Shown here piece after piece: positions 2,356 to 39,129 of a DNA stretch of 64,000 nt (position 1 is the first letter of the stretch; each line of letters begins with the position of its first letter). The DNA lies in IMG/VR virus record IMGVR_UViG_3300044796_000056, positions 1 through 64,000 of that record; one strand, given 5' to 3'. The DNA comes from a virus. The notes beneath the pieces were generated by a model that had not been told where the DNA came from, ran no database searches, and worked only from the letters and a program-made list of their open reading frames with translations. Made by a program: the position numbers and the translations under genes.

Positions 2356-3170
2356 TGGGGATGTATGCTATCGGTTGCCCAACACCTGGTTGCGGTAATA
2401 CTCACATGTGGTTCTCTGGAAACCTGGATCAACGTTGTCCAGCTTGCAAGGAACCCAAAAAACAAGAAGAGAAAATAATGACAGATAAAATTGAAGTGTT
2501 GAATGGTGGTTATATTCGTTTGGTCGACCATATGGGCGGAGATCTTTCAGTTGTACGTTCAGCCCGCGTCTCCTATGATGCCGGTTGGCGCGAACCGGAA
2601 CTGGATGAAGTCATCGGCAAGGACGCCAAGCTGATTGCCTACTTGCTGAAGAACAAACACACATCACCATTCGAGTCCGTGACCTTCACATTTGAAGTCA
2701 AGGCTCCAATCTTTGTCTACCGCCAGTGGCATCGCCATCGTACCTGGGCATACAACGAAGTCAGTGCTCGTTACACTGAACTGGATATGGGCTTCTATAT
2801 TCCGGCTCTGGCTGACATCAATCAGCAGCACGCCAGCAACAAGCAGATGCGCACTGACGAGCAACATCCAGAGGCTCAGTGGATACAGACCCAGATGTAC
2901 TCCAGCATCATGCGCTCATATAAGACCTATCTGCGTCTATTGAACAAGGGAACGGCTCGTGAGCTCGCCCGCATTGTTCTACCAGTGGCCATGTACTCTA
3001 AGATGTTCGCCACGGTGAATCTGCACAACCTACTACACTTCCTGACGCTACGTGCGCACACTCATTCCCAGAAAGAGATCAGGGTGTATGCCGAAGCAAT
3101 CCTTCAATTGATCGAGCCAATCGTGCCGGTCACCATCAAGAACTTTAACGAACTACGCGGAGAAAAATAA
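2355..3170 (+). CDS. thyX: flavin-dependent thymidylate synthase ThyX (core probably starts at ATG 2478)
   Basis: RQWHRHRTWAYNEVSARY signature, HTSPFE, ARELARIVLP. Confidence 0.95.
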   Translation: MGMYAIGCPTPGCGNTHMWFSGNLDQRCPACKEPKKQEEKIMTDKIEVLNGGYIRLVDHMGGDLSVVRSARVSYDAGWREPELDEVIGKDAKLIAYLLKNKHTSPFESVTFTFEVKAPIFVYRQWHRHRTWAYNEVSARYTELDMGFYIPALADINQQHASNKQMRTDEQHPEAQWIQTQMYSSIMRSYKTYLRLLNKGTARELARIVLPVAMYSKMFATVNLHNLLHFLTLRAHTHSQKEIRVYAEAILQLIEPIVPVTIKNFNELRGEK

Positions 3171-3489: not shown

Positions 3490-5406
3490 ATGTCCAACAT
3501 GTTACCTACTATTTATCAACAGTTCATTCACGTAAGCAGATATGCGCGCTTCTGTGATGACTTGGGTCGTAGGGAAACGTTTGAGGAAACCGTTGACCGC
3601 TACATTACCTTCTTCAAGGGACGTTCAGGAAAGAACAAAAGCAAGATTCCATTCGATGAATTGAAGGCCGCCATTCTTGGCTTAGAGATCATGCCTTCTA
3701 TGCGCGCACTAATGACTGCCGGTGAGGCGCTCGACAAAGACAACGTGGCTGGTTACAACTGCTCATATCTTCCAATTGACTCAGTCAAGTCCTTCGATGA
3801 GTTGATGTACATTAGCATGTGTGGTACAGGCGTCGGCTTCTCTGTTGAAAGTAAATACGTCAACAAGTTGCCCGAAGTTCCTGATGAACTTCACCCAACA
3901 GACACCAAGATCGTTTTCAAAGACTCCAAGCTGGGTTGGGCCAGTGGTTATCGTGAATTCATCTCGCTCCTTTACTCTGGCAAGATTCCTCAGTGGGACG
4001 TCTCTAAGTTGCGCCCATCCGGTGCTCGCCTGATGACCTTCGGCGGTCGTGCTAGCGGTCCAGAGCCTTTGATTGACTTGTTACAGTTCACCATCAATGT
4101 ATTCCAGAAGGCGCACGGTCGCAAGCTGAGCACCCTAGAGTGTCACGATATCGTTTGTAAGATTGCTGACATTGTAGTATCAGGAGGCGTCCGTCGCTCT
4201 GCCTTGATCTCCTTGACTGACTTAAACGATGACAAGCTACGTCACGCCAAGTCTGGTAACTGGTGGCTCGAAAACAACCAACGCGCATTAGCCAACATAT
4301 CTGCCGTGTATGAGAACAAGCCTGACATGGAAACCTTCATGCGTGAATGGTTCGCCCTACATGCTTCCCGCTCCGGCGAACGAGGTATCTTCTCACGAGA
4401 GGCTAGCCAGAAGGCTGCCGCCAAGTACGAGCGTCGTTCCGCGGACATCGACTACGGCACCAATCCTTGCTCAGAGATCATTCTACGCCCATATCAGTTC
4501 TGTAATCTAACGGAAGTGGTGGTCCGCGCCGATGATAGCCTTAAGGAATTGAAGCGCAAGGTTCGCTTGGCCACCATTCTGGGCACCCTACAATCTACTC
4601 TATCTGACTTCCGTTATCTGAACAAGAAGTGGAAGACCAATACAGAGGAAGAACGATTACTGGGCGTTAGTCTTACGGGCATCATGGATTGTAAAGTCAC
4701 CAACGGTCGTACCGGCAAGGTTGGATTCGGTTCAGGTGAAGAAGCACTTAAGGTTGCTTTGAGTATGCTTCGTGAAGAGGCCGTCGCCGTCAACAAAGAA
4801 TACGCTAAATTGATAGGAGTTGAGCCAAGTGCAGCAATCACCTGTGTTAAGCCAAGCGGAACTGTTAGCCAACTCGTGGATAGTGCGTCTGGCATACACC
4901 CTCGTTATGCCCAGTATTACATTCGTAGAGTACGTCTCGCCAAAACCGACCCACTAGGTCAGTTTATGATGACGAACGGCTACCTTGCCGAAGAAGACGT
5001 CCACAACAAGAACAATTGGGTGTTCGCCTTCCCTATGAAGGCACCAGCCGGTAGCGTACTAGTCAAGGACGTTTCAGCTATCACCCAATTGGAGTTATGG
5101 AAGGTATACCAAGAGCATTACTGCGAGCACAAGCCTTCTATTACCGTCTACGTCGGCGACGACGAGTGGATGGAAGTAGGATCCTGGGTTTACAAGAACA
5201 TGGACGGCATCTCTGGCGTCAGCTTCCTCCCTCGGGACACAGGCTCTTATCGTCAGGCACCATATGAAGAAATTGATGAGACTAAGTATAATGAGATACT
5301 GAAGACTCAGAATGTTTCAATTGACTGGACAAAGTTCAAAGAAGAAACAGATACCACGACGGCTGCCAAAGAATTGGCATGCAGCGCCGGTGTCTGTGAA
5401 TTGTAA
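3490..5406 (+). CDS. nrdJ: class II (B12-dependent) ribonucleotide reductase
   Basis: TNPCSEI, VKPSGTVS, C-terminal CSAGVCEL; no nrdB nearby. Confidence 0.92.
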   Translation: MSNMLPTIYQQFIHVSRYARFCDDLGRRETFEETVDRYITFFKGRSGKNKSKIPFDELKAAILGLEIMPSMRALMTAGEALDKDNVAGYNCSYLPIDSVKSFDELMYISMCGTGVGFSVESKYVNKLPEVPDELHPTDTKIVFKDSKLGWASGYREFISLLYSGKIPQWDVSKLRPSGARLMTFGGRASGPEPLIDLLQFTINVFQKAHGRKLSTLECHDIVCKIADIVVSGGVRRSALISLTDLNDDKLRHAKSGNWWLENNQRALANISAVYENKPDMETFMREWFALHASRSGERGIFSREASQKAAAKYERRSADIDYGTNPCSEIILRPYQFCNLTEVVVRADDSLKELKRKVRLATILGTLQSTLSDFRYLNKKWKTNTEEERLLGVSLTGIMDCKVTNGRTGKVGFGSGEEALKVALSMLREEAVAVNKEYAKLIGVEPSAAITCVKPSGTVSQLVDSASGIHPRYAQYYIRRVRLAKTDPLGQFMMTNGYLAEEDVHNKNNWVFAFPMKAPAGSVLVKDVSAITQLELWKVYQEHYCEHKPSITVYVGDDEWMEVGSWVYKNMDGISGVSFLPRDTGSYRQAPYEEIDETKYNEILKTQNVSIDWTKFKEETDTTTAAKELACSAGVCEL

Positions 5407-9447: not shown

Positions 9448-9824
9448 ACATCACCGAATACCAAGCCTGGGTTGCCAAGATGTGGTCCAGCAGCCGTCCT
9501 CTTAAGGCCGGCAAGCGCGAGTATACTCTCAAGGACAACTACGTCATGACGACCGGCTTGGCTGGCGAGACCGCCGAGGTTGTCGAGGCTGTCCTGAAGT
9601 TCGTGGTGGCGATAGGTAAGGTTACTGAACGATCCAAGAAGGACGTCCGGGACGAGCGGAAGCTAGAGAAGAAAGAACTTACGAAAGAGTTGGGCGACGC
9701 TCTCTACTATCTACTGGCCGTTGCTCATAAGAGTGATATCAAGGCTCAAGACATCATCAATGTCAACGTAGATAAACTCACAAAGCGTTACGCCAAGAAG
9801 AAATACGCACGAAAGGCTAAATAA
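9444..9824 (+). CDS. mazG: MazG-like nucleotide pyrophosphohydrolase
   Basis: GLAGETAEV...KELGDALYY...NVDKLTKRY. Confidence 0.85.
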   Translation: MNITEYQAWVAKMWSSSRPLKAGKREYTLKDNYVMTTGLAGETAEVVEAVLKFVVAIGKVTERSKKDVRDERKLEKKELTKELGDALYYLLAVAHKSDIKAQDIINVNVDKLTKRYAKKKYARKAK

Positions 9825-9844
9825 CTCCAGGGCAACCTGGAGTT
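9823..9844 (+). terminator. hairpin after mazG
   Basis: AACTCCAGG-GCAA-CCTGGAGTT perfect stem, weak U tract. Confidence 0.4.
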
Positions 9845-10004
9845 GACGTTGCGACTAGGATCGATCATTCTACTCATCTTTATACTAGGCATATTTGCCA
9901 TAGGTGAGACGTGGTTGCTCCAACACAAAGACGATCCCCGCATTCATGTCCATCACACCTGCCCAGACTTTACTTCTAAGACTGACCACGGTATAATATA
10001 AGCC

Positions 10005-10229
10005 ATGGACGTAAATACTGCCATAGAAATAGCTAACTCAGCGGGTGGCATCTACCGCTGGGAAGGCAAATTGAATTTACACGCGGTGTATTTCGATTAT
10101 GGTGGCATGTACTTCACGGTCAAAGAGCTAGCCGGTATGCCAGAAATGCAATACGAGGCTATCATCCATTCTGTAGCTGAACGAGAGGCCTATCTGGCCG
10201 AGACATATGGCGGACCCACGAAACACTGA
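10005..10229 (+). CDS. hypothetical protein
   Basis: ATG 7 nt after TATAAT (leaderless). Confidence 0.6.
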   Translation: MDVNTAIEIANSAGGIYRWEGKLNLHAVYFDYGGMYFTVKELAGMPEMQYEAIIHSVAEREAYLAETYGGPTKH

Positions 10230-10389
10230 GAAAGAGATCGACTACCGGAAGCCCACAAGGATTAACCGGAATGTCAGGAAGACGGAAAAGAAGCAGGCTG
10301 CTGCACCGCATCGGCGCTCGGAAGCCTATCACCGTGAACGGTTCGACACTCGCCGCGCGATTGACTTGATGGATGATGACGAATTTTAA
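10207..10389 (+). CDS. hypothetical basic protein
   Basis: Overlaps upstream ORF end. Confidence 0.5.
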   Translation: MADPRNTEKEIDYRKPTRINRNVRKTEKKQAAAPHRRSEAYHRERFDTRRAIDLMDDDEF

Positions 10390-10539
10390 GAGTTAGATCA
10401 ATTACTTAAGACTGAATTGACCTGATTCTACTATATAGGATACTTGAAGTACTTAACTTAAGACCTCAGAACATTACGAATTGATTAAGATCAATTCTTA
10501 GACTTTACTTCTGAGAAAACTAGAGTATAATAGTCTTCA

Positions 10540-11562
10540 TGGTTGAGGTAGCGGCACAAACCGCACCTGAACCTTCGATGGGGTCGTCAGAGAACCGCAC
10601 TAGAAGGTCGAACAGGATGTTCGATAGTCGAAACCGGGAGTCACCAACAAGGTGACGTTGACGACGCAACTCATGGGCCCTCTCCCATGCCAGGCACGCG
10701 GTCACTCTACCACAGAACCGCTGGAACAAGATTTCTTTTGATACGGTCAGCGTCCTCTCAACATGGACTAGCGTTTGGTTGTAAAGCCATCGATGACTCC
10801 GGATTACGTAACCGGAACATATTCTTCAATACATATGGGTGGGCAACGACCACCGCCGAAAATGCCAGGCTAATGTTGTTGAACTGTCTTTAAGTGTCCG
10901 TCTAGATAACGGTAACACCAAGACTCCGGATCAGTAACCGGAAATTATCTTCTGGGTTGCCTCCGCCGCCAACTTCTCTGGTCCATCCGCCAAAGGGTGG
11001 CACTGCTTGACAAAATTATATCCGCAGTGAAAGTGAGGAAATATTCCGATGGCTAACGCTGTCGTGACCAACAGGCCGGAAACGGTAAGCGTTGGTCTAG
11101 CCGTAAAGGTAGAAGTAAGAGCCAAGTGGATTGCCACCTTGAGGCTCATGAGCACTGCTGAGTGAGGCAACGTTGAGTTGCACCAGCACTCTTTAAGTAG
11201 GGTAGAGTGACATACTTGCCTGGTCGGATGATACGTGAGTAGGGTTGCAAACCGGAAACGTATCAGCGTGTGAAAATCATCGCCGTGCGGGACACCGAAA
11301 TGTCCCAGTCATTCAAGGTTTACTGGACCGGCTGCAACTGGTCCAGTAGAAGTCAGGCACGGCAAAGACTAAGCTTGCAGGTTGATGTCGAAACCGAGTA
11401 TGGTCGTCTAGTGGATAGGACGCTCCCGTTAAGGGGGAAACGAGTGTTCGAATCACTCTCATGCGTTGTCCTGACTTAAATTATCGAAGTGGGTTCAACT
11501 CCTACGGGTGCCCGGTGGCTAGCGTACATCGGCGAAACGATGTGACAGCCGGAGAGACGGCA
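10540..11562 (+). ncRNA. large ornate structured RNA, GOLLD-like
   Basis: ~1 kb without credible ORF after promoter 10506-10531; long-range helix 10690-10711 with 11201-11223; E-loop/GNRA hairpins; directly precedes the tRNA array. Confidence 0.65.
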
Positions 11563-11571
11563 AAGATTTAT

Positions 11572-11646
11572 TCCGACTGACGCGCAAGGTGTGCGGTGCC
11601 GCTGTTAACGGCCTGTGGATAGGTTCGATTCCTATAGTCGGAGCCA
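11572..11646 (+). tRNA. tRNA-Asn(GTT)
   Basis: Cloverleaf, loop CTGTTAA, CCA. Confidence 0.92.
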
Positions 11647-11650
11647 ATTT

Positions 11651-11726
11651 GGGTTTATAGCACAACGGCCAATGCATCCGGCTCTTAACCGGTAAGATCA
11701 GGGTTCGAATCCCTGTAAACCCACCA
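11651..11726 (+). tRNA. tRNA-Lys(CTT)
   Basis: Loop CTCTTAA, CCA. Confidence 0.95.
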
Positions 11727-11732
11727 GAAGAT

Positions 11733-11786
11733 TGATGTGTTGACCTTACGTCGCCGGTTGCGGAATGACGGGTCTAGACATCACCA
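11733..11786 (+). ncRNA. CCA-terminated hairpin RNA
   Basis: TGATGT/ACATCA stem plus CCA; internal GACC/GGTC and CGTC/GACG stems. Confidence 0.45.
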
Positions 11787-11835
11787 CGTCGAGTCGTGGC
11801 GTTTCGCGCAACAACGAAAGAGCGCGCTTGAATTC

Positions 11836-11909
11836 GGGCGGTTAGTATAGCGGGATTATGCCTGGCTTGCATCCAGGTGACAGGGGTTCGACTCCCCTAC
11901 TGTCCACCA
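11836..11909 (+). tRNA. tRNA-Ala(TGC)
   Basis: Loop CTTGCAT, G3-U70, CCA. Confidence 0.95.
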
Positions 11910-11914
11910 ATCCA

Positions 11915-11948
11915 TGGGCGAAGCGGCGAAAGCCTTAGTAGTCCACCA
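11915..11948 (+). ncRNA. 34-nt CCA-terminated minihelix
   Basis: TGGGC/GTCCA stem, GGC-GAAA-GCC, CCA end. Confidence 0.45.
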
Positions 11949-11954
11949 GTTTAT

Positions 11955-12035
11955 GTCCTGTCACACTCGGCGAGTGGTTGGCGTGCAGACGTGTACGTCA
12001 GACGAAGAAGGCTTCATTAACCTCGCAGGACTCCA
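11955..12035 (+). ncRNA. tRNA-like RNA without an anticodon loop
   Basis: GTCCTG/CAGGAC plus TCCA, D-like hairpin, 9-bp central stem with tetraloop, degenerate T arm. Confidence 0.55.
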
Positions 12036-12042
12036 AGTTTAC

Positions 12043-12117
12043 GCGGATGTGGCAGAATGGTAATGCCCAACTTTGCCAAAGTTGTGCTCGAGGGTTCGAT
12101 TCCCTTCGTCCGCTCCA
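12043..12117 (+). tRNA. tRNA-Gly(GCC)
   Basis: Loop TTGCCAA, TCCA. Confidence 0.93.
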
Positions 12118-12121
12118 TTTC

Positions 12122-12197
12122 GGGTTATTAGCTCAGAGGCAGAGCATCCGGCTTTTAACCGGTAAGGTCGAGATATCGTAATTCTCATAACCCACCA
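12122..12197 (+). tRNA. tRNA-Lys(TTT)
   Basis: Loop CTTTTAA, atypical T loop ATCGTAA, CCA. Confidence 0.9.
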
Positions 12198-12204
12198 AGT
12201 TTAT

Positions 12205-12279
12205 GGCGTGTCTATGGTTGAGGTTGGATCGCACCCAGCAGGACTTGAAGCAAGGAGTTAGTAGCTCTCCACGCCACCA
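12205..12279 (+). ncRNA. D-armless tRNA-like RNA (CGC in a 7-nt loop)
   Basis: GGCGTG/CACGCC plus ACCA; GTTGG-ATCGCAC-CCAGC arm. Confidence 0.5.
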
Positions 12280-12286
12280 GTATTAT

Positions 12287-12360
12287 TCACTGATCGTCCA
12301 GCGGCAGGACATCTGGCTCTGACCCAGAGAACCTAGGTTCGAATCCTAGTCGGTGATCCA
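12287..12360 (+). tRNA. tRNA-Gln(CTG)
   Basis: Loop CTCTGAC, CCA. Confidence 0.93.
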
Positions 12361-12374
12361 GACTATATAATCTC

Positions 12375-12677
12375 ATGCGCAAAGTAAGATTTCCTACTGA
12401 TATTGAACGTGCAGCCTACAGACGCAAAGTCGTCGCCCGTTTCAAACGGTTGAAAGGCTGTACTGACTGTGGCTACAAAGCCAATTCAGCAGCGTTAGAA
12501 TTTGATCATGTCGACGAAACTACCAAGACCAAAACGGTAGGATCGTTGATGTACAACGGATGGAAAGACATCAAGAATGAAATAGCAAAATGCGTCGTAC
12601 GATGTGCGAATTGCCACGCTATCAGAACACTTGAAAGAAACTACCGTAAGAAAGATTATGCCCGAGTGGTGGAATAG
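12375..12677 (+). CDS. small HNH endonuclease
   Basis: CTDC...LEFDH...CANCH; 3' end overlaps tRNA-Leu. Confidence 0.85.
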   Translation: MRKVRFPTDIERAAYRRKVVARFKRLKGCTDCGYKANSAALEFDHVDETTKTKTVGSLMYNGWKDIKNEIAKCVVRCANCHAIRTLERNYRKKDYARVVE

Positions 12678-12742
12678 GCAGACACACCGCGCTTAGAACG
12701 CGACGCGAAAGCATGCAGGTTCGATTCCTGTCTCGGGTACCA
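12660..12742 (+). tRNA. tRNA-Leu(TAG)
   Basis: Loop CTTAGAA, long V arm, CCA. Confidence 0.93.
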
Positions 12743-12748
12743 AGTTTT

Positions 12749-12808
12749 GCTAGCAGAACGTCCTCTCACACCAGGCAATTAGAGCCGAAATGTCAAGACG
12801 CTGCGGCT
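12749..12808 (+). ncRNA. repeated pseudoknot RNA motif, copy 1
   Basis: 36-nt core shared with copy 2, different but paired outer stem. Confidence 0.65.
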
Positions 12809-12814
12809 ACCGTT

Positions 12815-12891
12815 TGCGGGTTGGAGAAGTGGCTATCTCGCTTGCCTCATAAGCAAGAGATCCTGGGTTCGAGTCCCAGACTCCGCTACCA
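12815..12891 (+). tRNA. tRNA-Met(CAT), initiator-like acceptor end
   Basis: Loop CTCATAA, unpaired 1-72, CCA. Confidence 0.88.
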
Positions 12892-12998
12892 AATTTGTGG
12901 ACTATTCATCGGGCGAGAGCATCCGCTGTAACAGGCGCGTGATGCCAGTGCAGGTGCTCAATCCATCGTTCTGCCTGACGATACAGGCTTCTTATTCT

Positions 12999-13073
12999 GC
13001 CTTCAAAGCGTAAAAGGTGACGCGGTGGTTTTGTAATCCACAGAACACGGTTCGATTCCGTGTGAAGGCTCCA
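12999..13073 (+). tRNA. tRNA-Thr(TGT)
   Basis: Loop TTTGTAA, CCA. Confidence 0.9.
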
Positions 13074-13083
13074 AGTTTAGTTG

Positions 13084-13150
13084 CCAGTTCTACCGGTCTC
13101 CGAGCCGGTCACCCGACACTAGTGTGGCAGGGTGCACAAATACTGGACCA
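13084..13150 (+). ncRNA. CCA-terminated three-way-junction RNA
   Basis: CCAGT/ACTGG plus ACCA; ACCGG/CCGGT and CACCC/GGGTG arms. Confidence 0.5.
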
Positions 13151-13163
13151 ATTCAAAGTTTAT

Positions 13164-13249
13164 GCGTCGTTGTGTGAGTGGTTAAAACAATCTGTCTGTA
13201 AAACAGATCTCTTCGGGGTACGGTGGTTCGAATCCATCACGGCGCACCA
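13164..13249 (+). tRNA. tRNA-Tyr(GTA)
   Basis: Loop CTGTAAA, long V arm, CCA. Confidence 0.93.
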
Positions 13250-13259
13250 ATTTCAATAT

Positions 13260-13338
13260 GGCACCTTAGCATAGCCTGGCTTAATGCGCTACCCTGTCAC
13301 GGTAGAGATCACGGGTTCGAATCCCGTAGGTGTCGCCA
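13260..13338 (+). tRNA. tRNA-Asp(GTC)
   Basis: Loop CTGTCAC, GCCA. Confidence 0.93.
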
Positions 13339-13343
13339 ATTAT

Positions 13344-13418
13344 GCCTCGTTAGCTCAGCGATAGAGCGCCTCGTTTACACCGAGGATGTCGGCGGTTTGA
13401 TCCCGTCACGAGGTACCA
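13344..13418 (+). tRNA. tRNA-Val(TAC)
   Basis: Loop TTTACAC, CCA. Confidence 0.93.
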
Positions 13419-13424
13419 GTTTAT

Positions 13425-13499
13425 GCCTCACTCGTCCAAAGGCAAGGACGGCTGCCTGATTAGCGGCAAATCGCGGTTCGAGTCCGTGGTGAGGTACCA
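13425..13499 (+). tRNA. tRNA-Ile(GAT)
   Basis: Loop CTGATTA, CCA. Confidence 0.9.
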
Positions 13500-13505
13500 A
13501 TCAAT

Positions 13506-13579
13506 GTCCGTCAAGTGTTACGGTAGCACAGCTGTCTCCAAAACAGCGGGCCGGGGTTCGACTCCCTGGATGGACGCCA
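13506..13579 (+). tRNA. tRNA-Trp(CCA)
   Basis: Loop CTCCAAA, GCCA. Confidence 0.92.
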
Positions 13580-13583
13580 AATT

Positions 13584-13658
13584 GCCCTTATAGCATAACG
13601 GATAGTGTACAGTCCTGCGAAGACTGTGATCCAGGTTCGATTCCTGGTATGGGCGCCA
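13584..13658 (+). tRNA. tRNA-Arg(GCG)
   Basis: Loop CTGCGAA, GCCA. Confidence 0.9.
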
Positions 13659-13666
13659 ATTTGTAA

Positions 13667-13724
13667 AGCCGGAACAGGCCTCTCGCACCAGGCAATTAGA
13701 GCCAAAATGCCAAGCCTCCCGGCT
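13667..13724 (+). ncRNA. repeated pseudoknot RNA motif, copy 2
   Basis: AGCCGG/CCGGCT and AGGC/GCCT stems around the shared core. Confidence 0.65.
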
Positions 13725-13733
13725 AATTTATTT

Positions 13734-13807
13734 CAGGGTAAGGTGTTACGGTAGCATCCGAGTTTTGGAAACTTGTGGCCGGAGTTCAACTCTCCGTACC
13801 CTGACCA
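13734..13807 (+). tRNA. tRNA-Pro(TGG)
   Basis: Loop TTTGGAA, C1-G72, ACCA. Confidence 0.88.
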
Positions 13808-13813
13808 ATTTAT

Positions 13814-13887
13814 GCGGGATAAGTGTTTGGGTTACACGATAGTCTTCCAAACTATCATAGCGGGTTCGAGTCCCGCACTCCGCTCCA
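13814..13887 (+). tRNA. tRNA-Gly(TCC)
   Basis: Loop CTTCCAA, TCCA. Confidence 0.88.
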
Positions 13888-13894
13888 AGTTTAT

Positions 13895-13968
13895 GCTTCT
13901 TTCACACAACTGAATCAGTGTGTAAACCATGTGAGCGCGCAAGCGGGTCGTTGGTAGAGGAGCTCCCA
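13895..13968 (+). ncRNA. acceptor-stem-closed structured RNA
   Basis: GCTTCTTT/AGAGGAGC stem, CACAC/GTGTG arm, GCAA tetraloop arm. Confidence 0.4.
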
Positions 13969-13982
13969 ACCTCCTTTATTAT

Positions 13983-14057
13983 TCACTGATCGTCTAATTG
14001 GCAGGACGCGAGGCTTTGACCCTCTGAATCTAGGTTCGAGTCCTAGTCGGTGATCCA
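13983..14057 (+). tRNA. tRNA-Gln(TTG)
   Basis: Loop CTTTGAC, CCA. Confidence 0.92.
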
Positions 14058-14063
14058 GTTTTT

Positions 14064-14139
14064 GCTCCTATAGAATAGAGGCCCAGTTCGCGACCCTCTC
14101 AAGGTTGACACACCGGTTCGAATCCGGTTAGGAGCGCCA
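14064..14139 (+). tRNA. tRNA-Glu(CTC)
   Basis: Loop CTCTCAA, GCCA. Confidence 0.9.
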
Positions 14140-14146
14140 AATTATT

Positions 14147-14223
14147 CGGAGTGTAGCTCAGCCTGGTAGAGCGCGTGCCTTGGGCGCATGAGGTCGCAGG
14201 TTCGATTCCTGTCTCTCCGACCA
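14147..14223 (+). tRNA. tRNA-Pro(TGG), second copy
   Basis: Loop CTTGGGC, canonical CGGAGTG start, ACCA. Confidence 0.92.
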
Positions 14224-14346
14224 TCTTTAAGTTGACGAGAGTTGGCCGTGTCATGAGCGGCATCGCCTCAAGCTGGTACTGTCATGGGTATCACGGCGGA
14301 CTACCGAATATTCCCGGAACCGTTCAACTTAATCTTTTCAGTTTAT

Positions 14347-14423
14347 GCACTTATCGTCTAGTGGCTCAGGATACTCGCCTTTCAAGCGGGATGACTGGGG
14401 TTCGAATCCCCATAGGTGCGCCA
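14347..14423 (+). tRNA. tRNA-Glu(TTC)
   Basis: Loop CTTTCAA, GCCA. Confidence 0.93.
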
Positions 14424-14428
14424 ATTAT

Positions 14429-14503
14429 GCCTCTGAAGCTCAATGGAAGAGCAGCACGCTTCGAACGTGTTGGGTGCAGGTTCGAGTCCTGTCAGGGGTG
14501 CCA
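14429..14503 (+). tRNA. tRNA-Arg(TCG)
   Basis: Loop CTTCGAA, GCCA. Confidence 0.92.
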
Positions 14504-14580
14504 AATATGGACAAGGGTCCCGGTGAGTGTTCCACTTCACTGTACAACTAGAAGCCTGATGTATTTCAGGCAAGAATTAT

Positions 14581-14657
14581 GTCCTCTTAGCTCAACTGGA
14601 TAGAGCGCCGAGCTTCTACCTCGGATGTTACGGGTTCGAGTCCTGTAGAGGATGCCA
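14581..14657 (+). tRNA. tRNA-Arg(TCT)
   Basis: Loop CTTCTAC, GCCA. Confidence 0.94.
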
Positions 14658-14661
14658 TTTA

Positions 14662-14769
14662 TGACCGGTCTTGAGATGTAGGACACTACGATTTGATAGA
14701 CGGATAAGTTCAATCTTGCCGCATACATATCAGCAAGTGGATTCGCGACTCGCGCGAACACGGTCACCA
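14662..14769 (+). ncRNA. 108-nt CCA-terminated structured RNA
   Basis: TGACCG/CGGTCA plus CCA; internal T-loop-like AAG-TTCAAT-CTT. Confidence 0.5.
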
Positions 14770-14776
14770 AGTTTAT

Positions 14777-14852
14777 TCTCCTGTACGCCAATGCCAGAGC
14801 GGCTGCCCAATACGGCAGTGGAAGTGAAGGTACAGTCCTTCCGGGAGAGCCA
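14777..14852 (+). tRNA. non-canonical or pseudo tRNA (6-nt anticodon and T loops)
   Basis: TCTCCTG/CGGGAGA plus GCCA; CTGCC-CAATAC-GGCAG; GAAGG-TACAGT-CCTTC. Confidence 0.6.
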
Positions 14853-14857
14853 ATTAC

Positions 14858-14933
14858 GTCCTTGTAGCTCAGCGGATAGAGCGGCGATCTCCTACATCGC
14901 AGGTCGTGGGCTCGACTCCCACCAAGGACTCCA
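14858..14933 (+). tRNA. tRNA-Arg(CCT)
   Basis: Loop CTCCTAC, CCA. Confidence 0.92.
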
Positions 14934-15092
14934 AGTTGCTCCACATTCCGGCCGGAGTGTACCCAATCCGCTAACGCAGAACGGGGCAATGCCAGGGAGC
15001 ATTCAGTTTAGTCAGTACCGGTCACACGTCACCTGAAGACATAGGGCAGACCGGCTAAGAGATAGCATGCCAGACTACTGACATTTGATTAT

Positions 15093-15168
15093 GGAGTTTG
15101 TCAGCCAGCGGTTAGGCTCCCTCTCTGTGAAAGAGGTAACTCGGGTTCGAATCCCGACATTCTCCCCA
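15093..15168 (+). tRNA. tRNA-His(GTG)
   Basis: Loop CTGTGAA, G-1/C73, CCA. Confidence 0.85.
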
Positions 15169-15218
15169 ATAATTTTACCTTTCAATATATAAAAGTATCA
15201 TCACTCTTTGAGGGTACT

Positions 15219-15929
15219 TTGATGCGCAACCCGCTACTAGCTGCTTTGATGGCTCTGTTGTTTGGTTGTACGCAAAGTAATTACGAACAGTCACTGACAG
15301 CAATTCGACTAGACATGGATGACGGTAGCATTTGCTCCGGCACCATAGTGGGTCCTCACGTCCTATTGACAGCGGCGCACTGCCTTGAGCGAGAACCTAT
15401 CATCAATCTGGATAAGATCCAAGATGATCAACAGGGTCCTCCTGCTCCACCAAAGAAACCCGAACCAAAGAAGCCTAAGAAACCATTCAACTTCTTGGAC
15501 TTGATCACGATTCCTCCTCCATTCACGTCAGTGGCCATCAATGGCCGTGAAACAAAGATTCTGTCTATTGTGCCTGATCACAACGACCATGTCTTAGTCG
15601 AGGTAGACTACACGTTCAATCACTATGCCTCCTTGGCGGTCAACCGACCAGCTGTGGGTGGCAAAGTTCATTACTGGGGCAACCCTGCCGGTAAGCTCAT
15701 GGTCTACCGGGAAGGCTACGTCAGCTTCTACGATAAGACGATGATGGAAATGGATGTCAACGGTTTCTTCGGTGACAGTGGTTCCGGTATCTTCAATGAA
15801 GCCGGTCAGATTGTAGGAGTCATGAACGTCATAGACTTCGATCATCACCACGGTTTACAATTTTCATTGATGGGTTCTGAGCAGCTAGAATTTACTCCAC
15901 AACAGTTGGATATGCTCGGGATTCAATAA
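15219..15929 (+). CDS. trypsin-like serine protease, lipoprotein
   Basis: Lipobox LFGC; LTAAHC and GDSGS catalytic motifs. Confidence 0.88.
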   Translation: MMRNPLLAALMALLFGCTQSNYEQSLTAIRLDMDDGSICSGTIVGPHVLLTAAHCLEREPIINLDKIQDDQQGPPAPPKKPEPKKPKKPFNFLDLITIPPPFTSVAINGRETKILSIVPDHNDHVLVEVDYTFNHYASLAVNRPAVGGKVHYWGNPAGKLMVYREGYVSFYDKTMMEMDVNGFFGDSGSGIFNEAGQIVGVMNVIDFDHHHGLQFSLMGSEQLEFTPQQLDMLGIQ

Positions 15930-15936
15930 AGTATAT

Positions 15937-16028
15937 GGATGGTTGGCAGAGTCCGGCTTATTGCACTAGTCTTGAAAACTAGCAGACCAGAAATGGTCAC
16001 GTGGGTTCAAATCCTACACCATCCGCCA
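15937..16028 (+). tRNA. tRNA-Ser(TGA)
   Basis: Loop CTTGAAA, long V arm, GCCA. Confidence 0.94.
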
Positions 16029-16110
16029 GAGCAAGGGAGACATGTTGGTTCGACTCCAACCGTGAACAGTACGGCTGCACGCAGGATATCTGGAACATCC
16101 GCTCCCGCTT
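16029..16110 (+). ncRNA. T-arm-first (circularly permuted) tRNA-like RNA, YrlA-like topology
   Basis: GGGAG/CTCCC closing stem; perfect T arm GTTGG-TTCGACT-CCAAC at the 5' side. Confidence 0.45.
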
Positions 16111-16178
16111 GATCTAGACGCTCTCACTGCTTAGCGATACAGAGCAGTTGACCGGGAAGAAAGGTTCCCACGAATTAT

Positions 16179-16268
16179 GGGTGATTGGCCGAGCGGTTTA
16201 AGGCACCTGCCTAGAAAGCAGAAGAGGGCTAACGTCCTCCGTGGGTTCGAATCCTACATCACCCGCCA
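16179..16268 (+). tRNA. tRNA-Ser(AGA)
   Basis: Loop CTAGAAA, long V arm, G73, CCA. Confidence 0.88.
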
Positions 16269-16282
16269 GATTAAATGATTTT

Positions 16283-16359
16283 GCCCCACTGACGGAATTG
16301 GCATACGTACCACACTCAAAACGTGGGTTTTCAGGGTTCGACTCCCTGGTAGGGCACCA
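16283..16359 (+). tRNA. tRNA-Leu(CAA), short variable loop
   Basis: Loop CTCAAAA, ACCA. Confidence 0.85.
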
Positions 16360-16518
16360 GATGTCTTGATGTTGATGTTTACAAGGTGACTTATGCGATA
16401 GCAATACGACCCTTAATGAAATTTTACTTATAGAAAGTTTATAGATTGATTTTACATGTAATGGCGCAGAAAGTTGCCGGTCTCATAAACTGGCGATCAA
16501 TGGGCCATGAAGTGTAAC

Positions 16519-16591
16519 GACTTGCCAATTGTTAAGGCAGCATGCCCGGCTTTAAACCGGGAAGAGTTGGTTCGATTCCAACGACAAGTCA
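16519..16591 (+). tRNA. tRNA-like gene with TTA (ochre) anticodon
   Basis: CCCGG-CTTTAAA-CCGGG, perfect T arm, GACTTG/CAAGTC; no encoded CCA. Confidence 0.6.
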
Positions 16592-16744
16592 TAGAAGATT
16601 GTATGCATTCCTAATGTCCGAGTCTGGTTACAGGTATACAATCTACAGGTCTTAAGGATACGAGCAGGCAACGTTGTTCTCCTGCTACGTTTAGGAACAC
16701 GTCCTTACGGTGTGCTGGCCACATAAAAGGTTCCTACTTATTAC

Positions 16745-16819
16745 GGGTTCTTAGCTGAGACGGATTAGCGCTGGTCTGAAAAGCCGGAGAGGAAGGATCG
16801 TTACCTTCAGTGCCCACCA
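16745..16819 (+). tRNA. tRNA-Phe(GAA)
   Basis: Loop CTGAAAA, atypical T loop, ACCA. Confidence 0.88.
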
Positions 16820-16903
16820 ATTTCGATTTTGGGTTCGACACCCAACGTTCAAGGACACCCGCAAGGGTGACTTACACTTGCGGCAGGAGCAATCATTTAT
16901 TAC

Positions 16904-16981
16904 GGTGATGTGGCGGAGATGGCTCATCGCGCTTTCCTCATAAGAAAGAGAACACTGGTTCGAGTCCAGTTATCACCACCA
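16904..16981 (+). tRNA. tRNA-Met(CAT) (elongator or Ile2)
   Basis: Loop CTCATAA, ACCA. Confidence 0.9.
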
Positions 16982-17039
16982 AGTTTAGGTCTGCGTTAGA
17001 CCGTAAGGTCTCTATCTGGTTGACATGGGACGCAGTAAT

Positions 17040-17123
17040 CGCTAACACCAAAGGAACCGCTAAGAACCGCAATCGGTTCTTGATGAGCAATCATCAGTCG
17101 GTAACGAACCCCATTAGCGTCCA
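17040..17123 (+). ncRNA. CCA-terminated structured RNA
   Basis: CGCTAA/TTAGCG plus TCCA; AAGAACCG/CGGTTCTT and TGATGA/TCATCA arms. Confidence 0.5.
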
Positions 17124-17133
17124 ATCTTTATAT

Positions 17134-17228
17134 GCTCCATAGCTCAGGTGAGCGGGTGCGTTTTATAAGCGCGCGAGAGTGGCCGGACTGGCTGCAACGG
17201 GCAGGTTCGAGTCCTGTATGGAGTACCA
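17134..17228 (+). tRNA. tRNA-Ile(TAT) with long variable arm and short D arm
   Basis: GCTCCAT/ATGGAGT, loop TTTATAA, ~25-nt extra arm, ACCA. Confidence 0.8.
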
Positions 17229-17232
17229 TCAT

Positions 17233-17310
17233 GCCTCTGTGGCGAAACTGGCAAACGCGGCGAACTTAAAATCCGCTCCATTGTGGGTTCGACTCCCTCC
17301 TGAGGCACCA
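17233..17310 (+). tRNA. tRNA-Leu(TAA), short variable loop
   Basis: Loop CTTAAAA, ACCA. Confidence 0.85.
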
Positions 17311-17312
17311 TT

Positions 17313-17532
17313 TGATTGATCTCCCGGGATGTGCCGGGTGAAGATTCGGGTCGGCGAAAGCCGAGAGCGAGAGTGAGTGTAAGCCTGTAAGATCGGGTCA
17401 GCTGAGTACAGCACATGCTTCTAAAGAGTCGATGACAACTACCAGCGAAGACAGGGTCTTTGATACGCTGGGATACAAATCCTGAACTGTTGTCTAAAGC
17501 ACCACGAGCGGTAGTCCAATCCGCATCAATCA
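17313..17532 (+). ncRNA. 220-nt structured RNA of unknown class
   Basis: TGATTGAT/ATCAATCA closing helix filling an inter-tRNA gap; TCGGC-GAAA-GCCGA. Confidence 0.5.
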
Positions 17533-17540
17533 TCTTCTTC

Positions 17541-17614
17541 GACTGTATAGCTCAATGGTAGAGCAACGCCACGACACGGCGAAGACCAAGGCTCGATTCC
17601 TTGTACGGTCACCA
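17541..17614 (+). tRNA. tRNA-Val(GAC)
   Basis: Loop ACGACAC (non-U33), ACCA. Confidence 0.85.
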
Positions 17615-17616
17615 TA

Positions 17617-18144
17617 TCAATTCAAAGGCAATCCTCTTGACTTACGACCGTTGCCCCTATTCCTACCATGAGCAGTAGGAGTCATCGCGTGGCAATTAGG
17701 ACACAACAATCTAAGGTTTGATGGGAGATTATTCCCAGCATTCCCATCGATATGATCCAGTTCAAGTGGAATGGGTGATACTTTCCAATCTGTTAGAAGA
17801 CAGTCTTCACATTTATGTCCTCTCAAATCTATGAGATATCTTTTCAGATAATATCTATCGGTGTAGCTGCCAGAAAGTATTTTTTGCTCTCGATTATCAC
17901 GTATCTTTTCAAGGGTGAGTTTGTCTGATTTAGGCTTGCCTGTTCCTAATCTGTTATTGGTCAATTTGATAGCACAAGAATGAGAACAGAAAGTGTATTT
18001 CCTACGGTCATAATCTATCACCTTCCCACACCACTTACATAGTGTGGGATTTTCTAGATAGTGTTTTATATTCGCTGCTCGTTTTGCGTTGGATGTTGCT
18101 ATGGAGGCAGCGCCTCCCAATTTTCCCGCTTCTGATTTGTTCAT
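17617..18144 (-). CDS. HNH homing endonuclease
   Basis: CKWC/CSHSC, LELDHIDGN...NLRLLCPNCH; AT-rich and antisense to the array. Confidence 0.9.
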   Translation of the reverse strand: MNKSEAGKLGGAASIATSNAKRAANIKHYLENPTLCKWCGKVIDYDRRKYTFCSHSCAIKLTNNRLGTGKPKSDKLTLEKIRDNREQKILSGSYTDRYYLKRYLIDLRGHKCEDCLLTDWKVSPIPLELDHIDGNAGNNLPSNLRLLCPNCHAMTPTAHGRNRGNGRKSRGLPLN

Positions 18145-18146
18145 AT

Positions 18147-18220
18147 GCCCTTGTAGTCTAATGGTAAGACAGTTTCTTGGTAAGAAACAGTATTTAGTTC
18201 GATTCTAAACTAGGGCACCA
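18147..18220 (+). tRNA. tRNA-Thr(GGT)
   Basis: Loop TTGGTAA, ACCA. Confidence 0.88.
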
Positions 18221-18231
18221 TTATTCGTTCC

Positions 18232-18260
18232 TCACAGTTCGATTCTGTGTTGGGGCTCCA
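18232..18260 (+). pseudogene. orphan 3' half of a tRNA
   Basis: CACAG-TTCGATT-CTGTG-TTGGGGC-TCCA with no matching 5' half. Confidence 0.6.
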
Positions 18261-18383
18261 GTTTCGATGATTTGTCAAGTCCCATATTTCGTAGGAGTGT
18301 CTTCTAACGAGGATTCTCGAGACCAAACAAGCCATCGATCTCAATTGTTTACTCTTACAGTTAGATAGAGTATGATAGTATAC

Positions 18384-18539
18384 ATGAAGACGGTCGCTAT
18401 GGTGATTGTGTTCGCAGCCTTAACGGGCTGCGCCAATGCCCGTATCTATGCGTTTTGTGATAAACGTATCGACAAGGACCAGAAGACACATTATCATTGC
18501 GACAAACAACATATGATTGGTTTTGGCTATAAATTCTGA
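18384..18539 (+). CDS. small lipoprotein (51 aa, not in ORF track)
   Basis: MKTVAMVIVFAALTGC lipobox; ATG just after promoter. Confidence 0.6.
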   Translation: MKTVAMVIVFAALTGCANARIYAFCDKRIDKDQKTHYHCDKQHMIGFGYKF

Positions 18540-18547
18540 GGTGTGAC

Positions 18548-18877
18548 TTGAGCAACATTGTACTATTGAAATTGATCAGCGACGTTGATTTGGTCGCACA
18601 ACGAGTTTCCGAGCCGAACGTAGCACCGCTGAAGGTTCAGCATTGCGTTCAGCTATTGATGCAGCAGGATCCTCAATCCGGTAAGATTGGTTTCGTACCA
18701 ATGCCGTGGGGAGTGCTGGCAGGTTCTGATTTTATCTTCACGTTCGATGATACGAAGCTGGTCTATGGACTAGAGGCTCCGGCCGAACTTGAAGCACTGT
18801 ATCGTAAAATTCATGGTATGGTGGAATTGCCTTCCAAGGGACTGTTGATCCCAGGACAAGGTCCAAGCAAGAGATAA
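18548..18877 (+). CDS. conserved T4-like hypothetical protein
   Basis: GAGGTG RBS; LLKL..G/D and F.PW pattern. Confidence 0.6.
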   Translation: MSNIVLLKLISDVDLVAQRVSEPNVAPLKVQHCVQLLMQQDPQSGKIGFVPMPWGVLAGSDFIFTFDDTKLVYGLEAPAELEALYRKIHGMVELPSKGLLIPGQGPSKR

Positions 18878-18883
18878 GTTTAT

Positions 18884-18961
18884 GTTGTGGTGGCTGAGCG
18901 GCCCAAAGCATCTGTCTGCAAAACAGTAACACCATCGGTTCAAATCCGATCCACAACTCCA
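18884..18961 (+). tRNA. tRNA-Cys(GCA)
   Basis: Loop CTGCAAA, U73, CCA. Confidence 0.92.
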
Positions 18962-19013
18962 AATTCGCGCTGCGTGCTAAATAATATCATGATGTTACAT
19001 TGATAGGTGATTT

Positions 19014-19619
19014 ATGTCAGCGATGGATGTGTTGGTTGTCGATAAGGGTGGAAACCCTCGGGACTGGTTGAACTACCAGGACACCGTTAAGGCTTACGCA
19101 GAGGATAGGGTTATTTGTAACCTAGGATCTCACGTGCGCACTTATGTCGGTGGCCGCAATTCAACTGGCAAGCTCTCTAAGATTGAGATCTCATCTATTG
19201 TTATGGTCACCGGCCCAGTGCTTGGTGAGAAGTTCAAGTTCCGTGTAACCAAGTTCGCTGAGCGTCCTATTCTGTACGCTCGTGACTGCTACATGTGCGC
19301 TTACTGTGGTATCGTCCATAAGGACACGAAGTCAATTGATCTTCATTTGACCATTGATCATGTGATGCCTCGCTCACGCGGTGGTGATCACACTTGGACG
19401 AATACGGTAACGTCGTGCGCTGCTTGTAACCACGGTAAGGCAGACAGGACTCCGGAGGAAGCAGGAATGCAGCTTCTGTATGTTCCTTACGCACCTAACC
19501 TTCAGGAGAAGCTACTTCTGAAGAACCGCAAGGTGAAGGCCGATCAGATGGATTACTTGTTGTCTGTCATTCCGAAGACTTCAAGGATTCACCAGAACGT
19601 TCAACATTTGCGTAATTGA
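19014..19619 (+). CDS. HNH endonuclease (McrA-like)
   Basis: RDCYMCAYCG, TIDHVMPRSRGG..W.N.V.SC..CN. Confidence 0.9.
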   Translation: MSAMDVLVVDKGGNPRDWLNYQDTVKAYAEDRVICNLGSHVRTYVGGRNSTGKLSKIEISSIVMVTGPVLGEKFKFRVTKFAERPILYARDCYMCAYCGIVHKDTKSIDLHLTIDHVMPRSRGGDHTWTNTVTSCAACNHGKADRTPEEAGMQLLYVPYAPNLQEKLLLKNRKVKADQMDYLLSVIPKTSRIHQNVQHLRN

Positions 19620-19622
19620 TAT

Positions 19623-19712
19623 AGAAGGTTGCCAGAGTGGTCTAATGGCGCAGTTTGCTAAACTGATGGTTCCGAAAGGGGCACAAGGGTTCAAATCCCT
19701 TACCTTCTGCCA
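19623..19712 (+). tRNA. tRNA-Ser(GCT)
   Basis: Loop TTGCTAA, long V arm, GCCA. Confidence 0.94.
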
Positions 19713-20030
19713 GAGTTTCCGGTTAACCTCGTAAGAGGCCCAATCGGTTCGTTGAGTATAGAGGCTCAATGTTCAGGTATTGCAACCTGTGATAAGCCTT
19801 GGGACAAATAATGTCACTCCCGCCGTTGCTAAGTGGATAGGGCATAACAAACTCCGAGGATACATTTGATATGACGAGTAAAGAAGAGGTATGGGCCGAT
19901 CGTTGCTTCGTCATGATGGAGATAAGGAATCTTGTTCCACTACTCCAGGGAGAGCTCCTTGCCCGGTACAACGAGTTCCTTCTCAAGCCGATTGAGTACC
20001 GCAACTATATTCGTGAACTGGTGATACATT

Positions 20031-20498
20031 ATGACACGTGACGCACAAACAATCGCAAAAGAACTTCAAGAGATCGAACGCAAGAAGCGCGACCTTCAAG
20101 ATGAACAAACTAAGCTCTACTGGGCTTCCGAGCGCTTGAAGCGCCAAGCCAAGAAGAGCACATTGACGGCTGGTAGCTGGGTGAATGGCATAGGCCAGAT
20201 CATCACGACTGGAGATCTTTGTGTTGGTGTCACGGCTAACCGAGGAGCCAAAGTCACGGTTGGTACCTTTGCAGGATTCAGAGAACGTGGTGGCAAGGTC
20301 ACTTCAGTCAGTCTGAACATCATGAAGGAAGTCTATTACTACCAGACAACCGATGGTAAGCTTCACAAGCGATATCCTCTGGTTGATGGACGTAGGAACT
20401 ACAGCATCTCTTACTCCAGAATCAAGAAGCAAGAGATCCGCCGACAGTCATTCACACAGATGCGGGTTTACAAGATCCAACCGACGCAGACAGATTAA
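20031..20498 (+). CDS. hypothetical protein, paralog of 20846-21370
   Basis: Shared N.xG.II..GD motif. Confidence 0.6.
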   Translation: MTRDAQTIAKELQEIERKKRDLQDEQTKLYWASERLKRQAKKSTLTAGSWVNGIGQIITTGDLCVGVTANRGAKVTVGTFAGFRERGGKVTSVSLNIMKEVYYYQTTDGKLHKRYPLVDGRRNYSISYSRIKKQEIRRQSFTQMRVYKIQPTQTD

Positions 20499-20570
20499 CG
20501 CGGCTGGATTAGCAGCCAAACGGACGCCACACCGTCTGAGAGCCCAAGACCGGTTAAGGGTGCAGGAAAT

Positions 20571-20789
20571 GTGGCACTGATTCAACAAGTCGACCTAACG
20601 CGGCAGATAAGGATGTTTGTCGAGGAAGTTCGCGACTGGCGCAGAGGACGAGTAGGAGCGAAAGCGACAAACTACCGTGATACAGCCAGCAATCTAAACA
20701 GAACCAGGGAATCCTTTGCTTATTGGTTCGGGTTAGAGCACCCACTCAACGGAGTGGGATTGATCGAAAGGTCTTTAGGCAAATGTTAG
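20571..20789 (+). CDS. hypothetical protein
   Basis: AGGA RBS before GTG. Confidence 0.4.
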   Translation: MALIQQVDLTRQIRMFVEEVRDWRRGRVGAKATNYRDTASNLNRTRESFAYWFGLEHPLNGVGLIERSLGKC

Positions 20790-20845
20790 GATAGAACAGA
20801 ATCGCGGCTACGGACTTGTTGATAATTTATTAAGATGGAGTTAAT

Positions 20846-21370
20846 ATGGCATTGCGCAAACCAGTTGAACTTCCCTATGAGAATGATCTAGGTCACATCA
20901 TCAATGTTGGTGATAAGGTCTTGATCGTAACTACCGGCTACAGTCACAGCGTCTCGGTACGCATGGGCACCTACCTGGGCAAGATCCGCGACGACAAGGA
21001 CAGCGATTACGAATCTGGTTGTGTCGTGATGGTAGATGAAGAGCGCAGGGTTCTCCGTCACAAGGAAACCAATGAGGAGCTCGACTGGGAGAAACACATC
21101 GAACCGGCTACCGGTCCACGTCCTGAGTATCCCACACTACACCATGTGCAATGGCTGAGCAGAGTTCGTCTGACTGATGAACAGAACAAAGAGAATGCTG
21201 AACGCCAGGCAGCGCACAAGGTTGCCACCGATCTGTATAATGCTAAGCAGGTGGAAGTGATGAAGAACTTCCACCACGTCTATGAACCATACACTCGGCG
21301 CACAACTTTGCAGCGGAACCGGATCTATCCAGTGAACATGGGTCTCAAAGAGTTCATCCGACAGATCTAA
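20846..21370 (+). CDS. hypothetical protein
   Basis: GGAG RBS; paralog of 20031-20498. Confidence 0.65.
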   Translation: MALRKPVELPYENDLGHIINVGDKVLIVTTGYSHSVSVRMGTYLGKIRDDKDSDYESGCVVMVDEERRVLRHKETNEELDWEKHIEPATGPRPEYPTLHHVQWLSRVRLTDEQNKENAERQAAHKVATDLYNAKQVEVMKNFHHVYEPYTRRTTLQRNRIYPVNMGLKEFIRQI

Positions 21371-21385
21371 TAAATATCTGATAAC

Positions 21386-39126: not shown

Positions 39127-39129
39127 ATA

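Follow-up and report, generated by a model that had tools for sequence, protein, structure and literature searches.

A probable family of large modular RNAs heading the tRNA array of uncultured T4-like peat and soil phages

GOLLD and ROOL are very large RNAs of tRNA-island phages that assemble into RNA-only cages and whose function is unknown. Smaller RNAs also accompany phage tRNAs; for example, the stable 'species 1 and 2' RNAs of phage T4, which are ~120-140 nt in length, are not tRNAs themselves and lie inside the tRNA cluster, where they are co-transcribed with the phage tRNAs and excised by the tRNA-processing machinery. The HK022 put elements are about 70 nt and consist of two stem-loops. 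GOLLD is large, often over 800 nt, and ornate, and occurs in phages and prophages, in many cases next to or inside tRNA islands; tRNAs are sometimes present in its linker, and its 3' region is conserved (PMC12286853). ROOL is about 580 nt in length, contains several multistem junctions, is found near tRNAs in phages and prophages and has no known protein partner (PMC5737381, PMC12286853). The RNA described here heads a tRNA array and represents a new class of phage RNA, large and modular, that is analogous to GOLLD and ROOL in context only. It was found in the first 64 kb (the window, i.e. the whole stretch of DNA that was analysed) of an IMG/VR viral record that is 76 kb long and has a completeness estimate of 44%. 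Positions 10540-11571 (+) are probably the largest known copy of an undescribed structured non-coding RNA family that forms the 5' leader of the tRNA-array transcript. The members of the family are from T4-like phages of peat and soil that belong to one uncultured clade.

The window is a fragment of a T4-like phage and carries genes for a class II ribonucleotide reductase (RNR), ThyX, a primase, MazG and T4-type baseplate proteins. No cultured phage close to the window was found, with RNR identities below 60%. The region 10540-11571 (+) is bordered on its 5' side by a promoter-like site and ends at the first gene of the tRNA array:

10504-10531, + strand: sigma-70-like promoter, TTTACT, 16-nt spacer and TATAAT, 10/12 matches, called by consensus match only
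11572-11646, + strand: tRNA-Asn(GTT), the first tRNA of the array (ARAGORN)
11572-21460, + strand (all genes): tRNA array with 36 tRNA genes

Based on the promoter-like site, transcription is predicted to start near 10538-10540. The largest ORF in 10540-11571 is 79 aa, and no reading frame is conserved across the members of the family, which are similar in several frames and on both strands simultaneously. In peat run X2, which is labelled metatranscriptomic, the region is present on the same 13,391-nt contig and has the same flat depth as in DNA run X1.

Nine relatives of the leader RNA were found in peat and soil phage contigs, resulting in ten members including the window. The initial annotation had proposed a large structured non-coding RNA heading the tRNA operon, and the ten members, with strong covariation among them, support this proposal. 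The first relative, L004, was found through RNR-based loci and contains a 76-nt block equal to window 10661-10733. Further relatives were obtained by motif scans of viral and metagenome contigs, which were filtered by blastn and a covariance model (R1). The relatives are L004, L194 and L195, which are near-identical to one another, L190, L186, L196, L193, L192 and L079, plus the divergent L213 on a 126 kb contig; all ten members are from one clade. With R1, the window scores 113.9 bits, eight relatives 124-159 bits and L213 44.4 bits, versus at most 18.5 bits for chance motif matches. Gapped-motif matches in six coding sequences of viral contigs, five metagenome contigs and 16 bacterial genomes were rejected as non-members at this level (18.5 bits or less).

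In every member with enough sequence, the promoter-like site is followed by the core and then by the array, whose first tRNA is tRNA-Asn(GTT), and the TTTACT...TATAAT arrangement is also observed 5' of the RNA in L192 and L213. The family signature, which consists of core helices P1-P3 and the invariant ACGCAACUC...CACGCGGU...ACCGCUGGAACAAGA upstream of tRNA-Asn(GTT), is present in the window. The leader varies from ~330 nt to 1,030 nt across the members, that of the window being the longest, and 841 nt separate the core from tRNA-Asn in the window versus 179-480 nt in the relatives. The shortest member, L079, stops right after module C and abuts tRNA-Asn, indicating that the minimal family unit is ~330 nt. 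The core and B-C parts that are common to all close members lie within ~470 nt (10580-11045). In the record of the window, the leader RNA is single-copy.

A blastn search with the region in 50,697 phage genomes and a search with the core model near the RNR loci of phages with ~55% RNR identity both gave no match, and no related loci were found via the 308-aa neighbour protein. Nearly all matches of 15-mer scans were due to chance, and a scan with the 3'-domain motif gave AT-rich chance matches only. The genome search with R1 missed the G002 copy, which was then recovered by cmsearch. A contig of run X3, from a related strain in another peat sample, matches window 9619-10740 and stops at the end of the conserved core, which is consistent with sequence divergence downstream of the core.

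The surroundings of the RNA contain several other elements. Directly 5' of it, at 10005-10389, two small ORFs encode 74 aa and a very basic 60 aa with an acidic tail. Both are syntenic in L004, L079, L190 and L193-L195 at an identity of only 24-47%, and no Pfam family matched them. The basic 60-aa protein could be an RNA-binding partner of the leader RNA. A permuted tmRNA of the two-piece type is present at 39098-39455 (Rfam tmRNA_permuted 129 bits; ARAGORN tag peptide ASNDDIYDTVELALAA), and a lone tRNA of the amber-suppressor type with the anticodon CTA (labelled 'Pyl' by ARAGORN) is located outside the main array at 37122-37197. In addition, many spacers of the array (11733-21400) are 55-220 nt in length and look structured, and these may be further small RNAs freed by tRNA processing.

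The 5' part of the leader RNA contains the most strongly conserved elements:

10541-10573, + strand: 5' hairpin, in some members only (window, L192 and L079)
10580-10735, + strand: conserved core (alignments A1 and A5; R1 113.9 bits)
10583-92/10656-65, + strand: core P1, an 8-11 bp closing helix around a variable insert
10666-67/10694-95, + strand: core GC/GC pair (2 bp)
10672-77/10684-89, + strand: core hairpin P2
10698-702 + 10706-08 / 10714-21, + strand: core two-part hairpin P3, followed by the invariant tail UGGAACAAGAUU

Across nine distinct sequences, 94.8% of the cells of the core are paired, and 20 of the 28 pairs show changes on both sides. None of 500 shuffles was as good on any measure, and pairing fell to 35-42% when the partners were slid by 1-3 columns as a control. 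The single-sequence minimum free energy (MFE) structure of the window core alone is exactly the consensus fold. Between the helices, the stretches ACGCAACUC, CCAGGCAC and UGGAACAAGAUU are unpaired and invariant. The nucleotide identity of the core is 79-91%, versus 24% for the adjacent 74-aa protein, indicating strong selection on the RNA itself.

A second conserved structure is located downstream of the core:

10955-11043, + strand: B-C multi-helix junction (alignment A2)
10955-64/11033-43, + strand: long-range B-C helix
10968-71/10979-82 and 11000-07/11024-30, + strand: further B-C helices
10983-87/10995-99, + strand: B-C hairpin

In this junction, 91.2% is paired and 14 of the 24 pairs are altered on both sides; this was matched by none of 500 shuffles, and pairing in the slid controls was 32-44%. 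The numerous G-U pairs in the core and the B-C junction indicate that the + strand is the RNA strand.

The remainder of the window RNA consists of parts that are absent from, or shared with few of, the relatives:

10736-10949, + strand: expansion A, window-specific, gaps in all relatives, occupying the site of the variable hairpin P4
11050-11345, + strand: expansion B, a window-specific string of hairpins with no counterpart in the relatives
11350-11477, + strand: tRNA-like domain, with a cloverleaf at 11397-11466 that is closed by the 8-bp helix 11350-57/11470-77
11478-11571, + strand: 3' tail, consisting of the linker AAAUUAUCGAA, a T-loop-like hairpin (11490-11506), GGGUGCCCGG, two small hairpins and a GAUUUAU leader

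Beyond module C, the sequence comprises 0 nt in L079, ~135-145 nt in L192 and L004, ~245 nt in L193 and ~520 nt in the window, and because of this variation from 0 to 520 nt, the 3' half may not belong to one functional unit. In expansion A, a hairpin unit of ~35 nt is duplicated (10796-10830 and 10922-10956), without copies elsewhere. An origin of this expansion by recent tandem duplication was rejected, since just the ~35-nt hairpin is doubled and TRF finds nothing. Expansion B includes a hairpin at 11229-65 with an AGUA/GAA internal loop and a 13-bp hairpin at 11319-50. The former had been described as an E-loop hairpin; an 8-bp stem with the internal loop is present (z = -2.2), and the name 'E-loop' is plausible from the motif only. 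The latter had been given as an 11-bp hairpin at 11321-48, which agrees with the 11 bp found there (including one G-U), or 13 bp if extended (z = -5.8).

The cloverleaf at 11397-11466 matches the Rfam tRNA model RF00005 at 32.7 bits (gathering score 29), and its counterpart in L193 scores 38.7 bits. ARAGORN calls no tRNA at 11397-11466. Its 'anticodon' loop is 5 nt in the window and 6 nt in L193 instead of 7 nt, indicating that the tRNA-like cloverleaf cannot decode. The cloverleaf lies within an additional 8-bp helix and is accompanied by an additional hairpin, and the fold of the domain has a z of -3.1. The enclosing helix (11350-57/11470-77, helix 4) had been considered a pseudoknot-type pairing but is nested instead, closing the tRNA-like domain, and is kept in L193 via two double changes (AAGTCAGG/CCTGACTT versus AAGTCGC/GCGACTT). 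The T-arm is also compensated in L193. Overall, the 3' domain is common to the window and L193 at 77% column identity. In the 3' tail, a 43-nt match to L193 was found (E = 1e-6), the A/U-rich linker AAAUUAUCGAA is invariant, and the GAUUUAU leader abuts tRNA-Asn. The stem of the T-loop-like hairpin is fully compensated in the comparison of the window with L193 (GUGGG/CCUAC versus ACAGG/CCUGU).

Other tRNA-like pieces are observed among the relatives. In L004 (16205-16353), L186 (about 2940-3131) and L196 (about 985-1100), the pieces are swapped, with a T-arm-like hairpin (GGTTCGAATCC) before a D-arm-like hairpin (TCGTCTAGTGG), whereas the order is normal in the window and L193. In L213, a tRNA-like element (4008-4079, minus strand) with an Rfam score of 45 bits is located directly upstream of tRNA-Asn, and ARAGORN makes no call for it.

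The check proposed in the initial annotation, cmsearch with the GOLLD and ROOL models, gave no match in the window or the relatives. These models were applied at the gathering score to the 64 kb window, at E<=10 to 10300-11700 and at E<=1 to seven relatives. Across Rfam 15, the region of the window gave nothing at E<=10 except the weak tRNA match at 11397-11466, and the bacterial RNase P RNA models of Rfam gave no match at E<=10. Permuted RNase P RNA or SRP-like motifs were a by-eye idea that is unsupported by Rfam; with respect to P4 and CR-I/CR-V of RNase P RNA, GAGGAAA and AGAACCGC are present but their order is wrong, and they form no pairing with one another. No papers describing the leader RNA were found in the literature searched. 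The suggestion of a new class thus agrees with the lack of any match in Rfam 15 or these papers, and the suggestion of a GOLLD variant was abandoned, given the lack of a GOLLD or ROOL match and a polarity opposite to that of GOLLD.

The likenesses to GOLLD (RF01998) are the location of a phage RNA beside a tRNA island, here abutting a 36-tRNA array, and the large size and ornateness with one conserved and one variable domain. Embedded tRNA-like elements in the leader RNA are a likeness to both GOLLD and ROOL. The conserved part is 3' in GOLLD, whereas here the 5' core and the B-C junction are conserved and the 3' part varies; in addition, and unlike GOLLD, the leader RNA always comes first after the promoter. 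ROOL (RF03087) is likewise located near tRNAs in phages but has a different consensus sequence, and the habitats differ, i.e. T4-like phages of peat and soil versus rumen organisms or Firmicutes. Compared by description with the T4 species 1 and 2 RNAs, the leader RNA differs in being 330-1,030 nt long, in heading the cluster and in having a multi-domain fold.

The window contains one further element, which overlaps expansion B:

11174-11223, + strand: 'anti-core', three blocks complementary to core 10666-73, 10690-96 and 10701-11 (helices 1-3)

Four pairings had been proposed for this RNA, and all are exact reverse complements: 10690-96/11217-23 and 10701-11/11201-11 (helices 1 and 2), 10666-73/11174-81 (helix 3) and the nested helix 4. 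Singly, exact inverted repeats are not enriched in the region (8-mers, 13 versus 9.0 +/- 4.0 in shuffles; 11-mers, 1 versus 0.33). Helix 3 is no better than expected by chance, and its bases can form a competing local GCAAC/GUUGC hairpin. The compound helices 1+2 (10690-96 + 10701-11 / 11201-11 + 11217-23) form 18 bp around a 4x5 internal loop with an energy of -35.5 kcal/mol versus -26.5 +/- 2.6 kcal/mol in dinucleotide shuffles; of 1,000 such shuffles, 2 attained this energy, a figure that carries selection bias because the arm was chosen by eye. They form the strongest duplex among all 28-nt arms of the region and are present in the full-length MFE and centroid structures. Cofolding of the core and anti-core segments gains -24 kcal/mol, and forcing the family helices on the full-length window RNA costs 48 kcal/mol (-336.1 versus -384.4). 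As the thermodynamic model favours the anti-core over the consensus core by this amount, the mature fold in the window phage is uncertain.

The 3' arms of the anti-core pairings sit in the window-only expansion B. No clean counterpart of the 3' arm was found in the relatives, where the best duplexes are irregular (-20 to -31 kcal/mol), and the exact anti-core motif is absent from the viral contigs. The 5' arms of helices 1-3 overlap the GC/GC pair, P2 and P3, and these helices therefore exclude the covarying pairs. The idea that helices spanning 500 nt define the architecture was thus not sustained, since the relatives are without the 3' arm and the 5' arm is part of local covarying hairpins. 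An origin of the anti-core by simple inverted duplication was rejected because the order of the blocks differs.

Related repeats of core sequence are present in some relatives. A second same-sense core motif, (T)AGGCACGCG, is found in the 3' region of L186 (about 3055-3070) and L004 (about 16290-16305), and the corresponding element of the window is antisense, i.e. the anti-core. In L193, the best duplex between the core and downstream sequence is a perfect 8-mer of core CCAGGCAC with GUGCCUGG in the 3' tail (GGGTGCCTGG). The equivalent in the window, GUGCCCGG (11507-11516), differs by a single mismatch, and the 5' and 3' parts of the RNA may thus be in contact in the subgroup of the window and L193.

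Several steps can be proposed for the formation of the leader RNA. Transcription would start at the promoter-like site at 10504-31, the core would fold locally first, during transcription, and the leader RNA and the tRNAs would be made as one precursor. By analogy with established tRNA processing, RNase P would cut at the 5' end of tRNA-Asn (11571/72) and free the leader RNA, and a second cut may be possible at the conserved A/U-rich linker (11478-88). The freed RNA is tentatively proposed, by analogy with GOLLD and ROOL, to be a stable RNA particle that folds by itself and has a trans-acting role in the tRNA and translation programme of the phage. The tRNA-like modules would be handles or decoys for tRNA-binding factors, as suggested by the same analogy of context. 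In the window, the anti-core, which is made ~500 nt after the core, may re-pair the core as a lineage-specific clamp or switch.

The main rival to a trans-acting RNA is antitermination or attenuation in cis, which is considered unlikely. Here, the core would be a put-like processive antiterminator or attenuator acting on RNA polymerase or the nascent RNA, aiding transcription through the roughly 10 kb of untranslated tRNA/RNA array, and the rest of the leader would be a processing scaffold. Like put and leader antiterminators, the RNA is a structured 5' RNA that is followed by terminator-like hairpins in some relatives, and in all ten members its core lies at the extreme 5' end of the operon. 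Directly after the core, L004, L190, L193 and L194 carry a covarying hairpin with a U-run, as does L079 in a weaker form, with no promoter-like site between this hairpin and tRNA-Asn in these five members, and the long invariant unpaired stretches of the core fit a binding surface. However, the window, L186, L192, L196 and L213 are without a U-run hairpin after the core, and no terminator was found there in the window. The family conserves more than 300 nt, with the B-C junction, 150-300 nt downstream, being equally conserved and covarying, which is far beyond the needs of a put-type element. A boxA (Nus) motif is absent within 3 mismatches in any member. In addition, highly structured RNA is a poor Rho substrate, which also speaks against this rival.

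A leader made up of a chain of small RNAs, each processed separately, and of decayed tRNA genes, resembling the structured spacers of the array and with the 5' domain as the sole functional unit, seems more improbable still. The gain and loss of the 3' region in modules (0 to 520 nt), the self-closing nature of every module, the normal or swapped order of the tRNA-like pieces among relatives and the resemblance of the invariant A/U-rich linker to the UUUAU leaders before true tRNAs fit such a chain. Against it, the differences between the window and L193 are compensatory in the tRNA-like domain, in the helix that closes it and in the T-loop hairpin, which are thereby maintained, indicating that the tRNA-like domain and the T-loop hairpin are not debris, and the anti-core complementarity ties the 5' and 3' parts together in the window. 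One integrated giant RNA of roughly 1 kb, a GOLLD variant or GOLLD-like RNA with an architecture based on 500-nt helices and pseudoknots, is very unlikely: helices 1+2 in the full-length MFE and centroid structures, their rarity in shuffles (2/1,000), the cofold gain of -24 kcal/mol and the hint of a 5'-3' contact from the L193 duplex of CCAGGCAC with 3'-tail GUGCCUGG favour it, but the 3' arm occurs in no relative, helices 1-3 are incompatible with the covarying pairs of P2, P3 and GC/GC, with helix 3 at chance level, the GOLLD and ROOL models do not match, and a 330-nt member (L079) exists.

The trans-acting leader RNA can be taken one step further, to a proposal that is more speculative and rather doubtful. 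The family would then be a third unrelated class of giant RNA at tRNA arrays, built on a ~350-nt 5' domain that takes up expansions and tRNA-like modules to reach ~1 kb and forms a higher-order particle like GOLLD and ROOL, and the anti-core of the window would be a post-transcriptional conformational switch. If a third unrelated family shares the niche of GOLLD and ROOL, this would point to a general need rather than a curiosity. The natural size variants, from 330 to 1,030 nt, are a ready-made deletion set, in which the minimal L079-type RNA can be compared with the expanded RNA of the window. This size series makes it testable whether the RNA acts in cis or in trans on the expression of the tRNA operon and whether the tRNA-like modules serve as handles.
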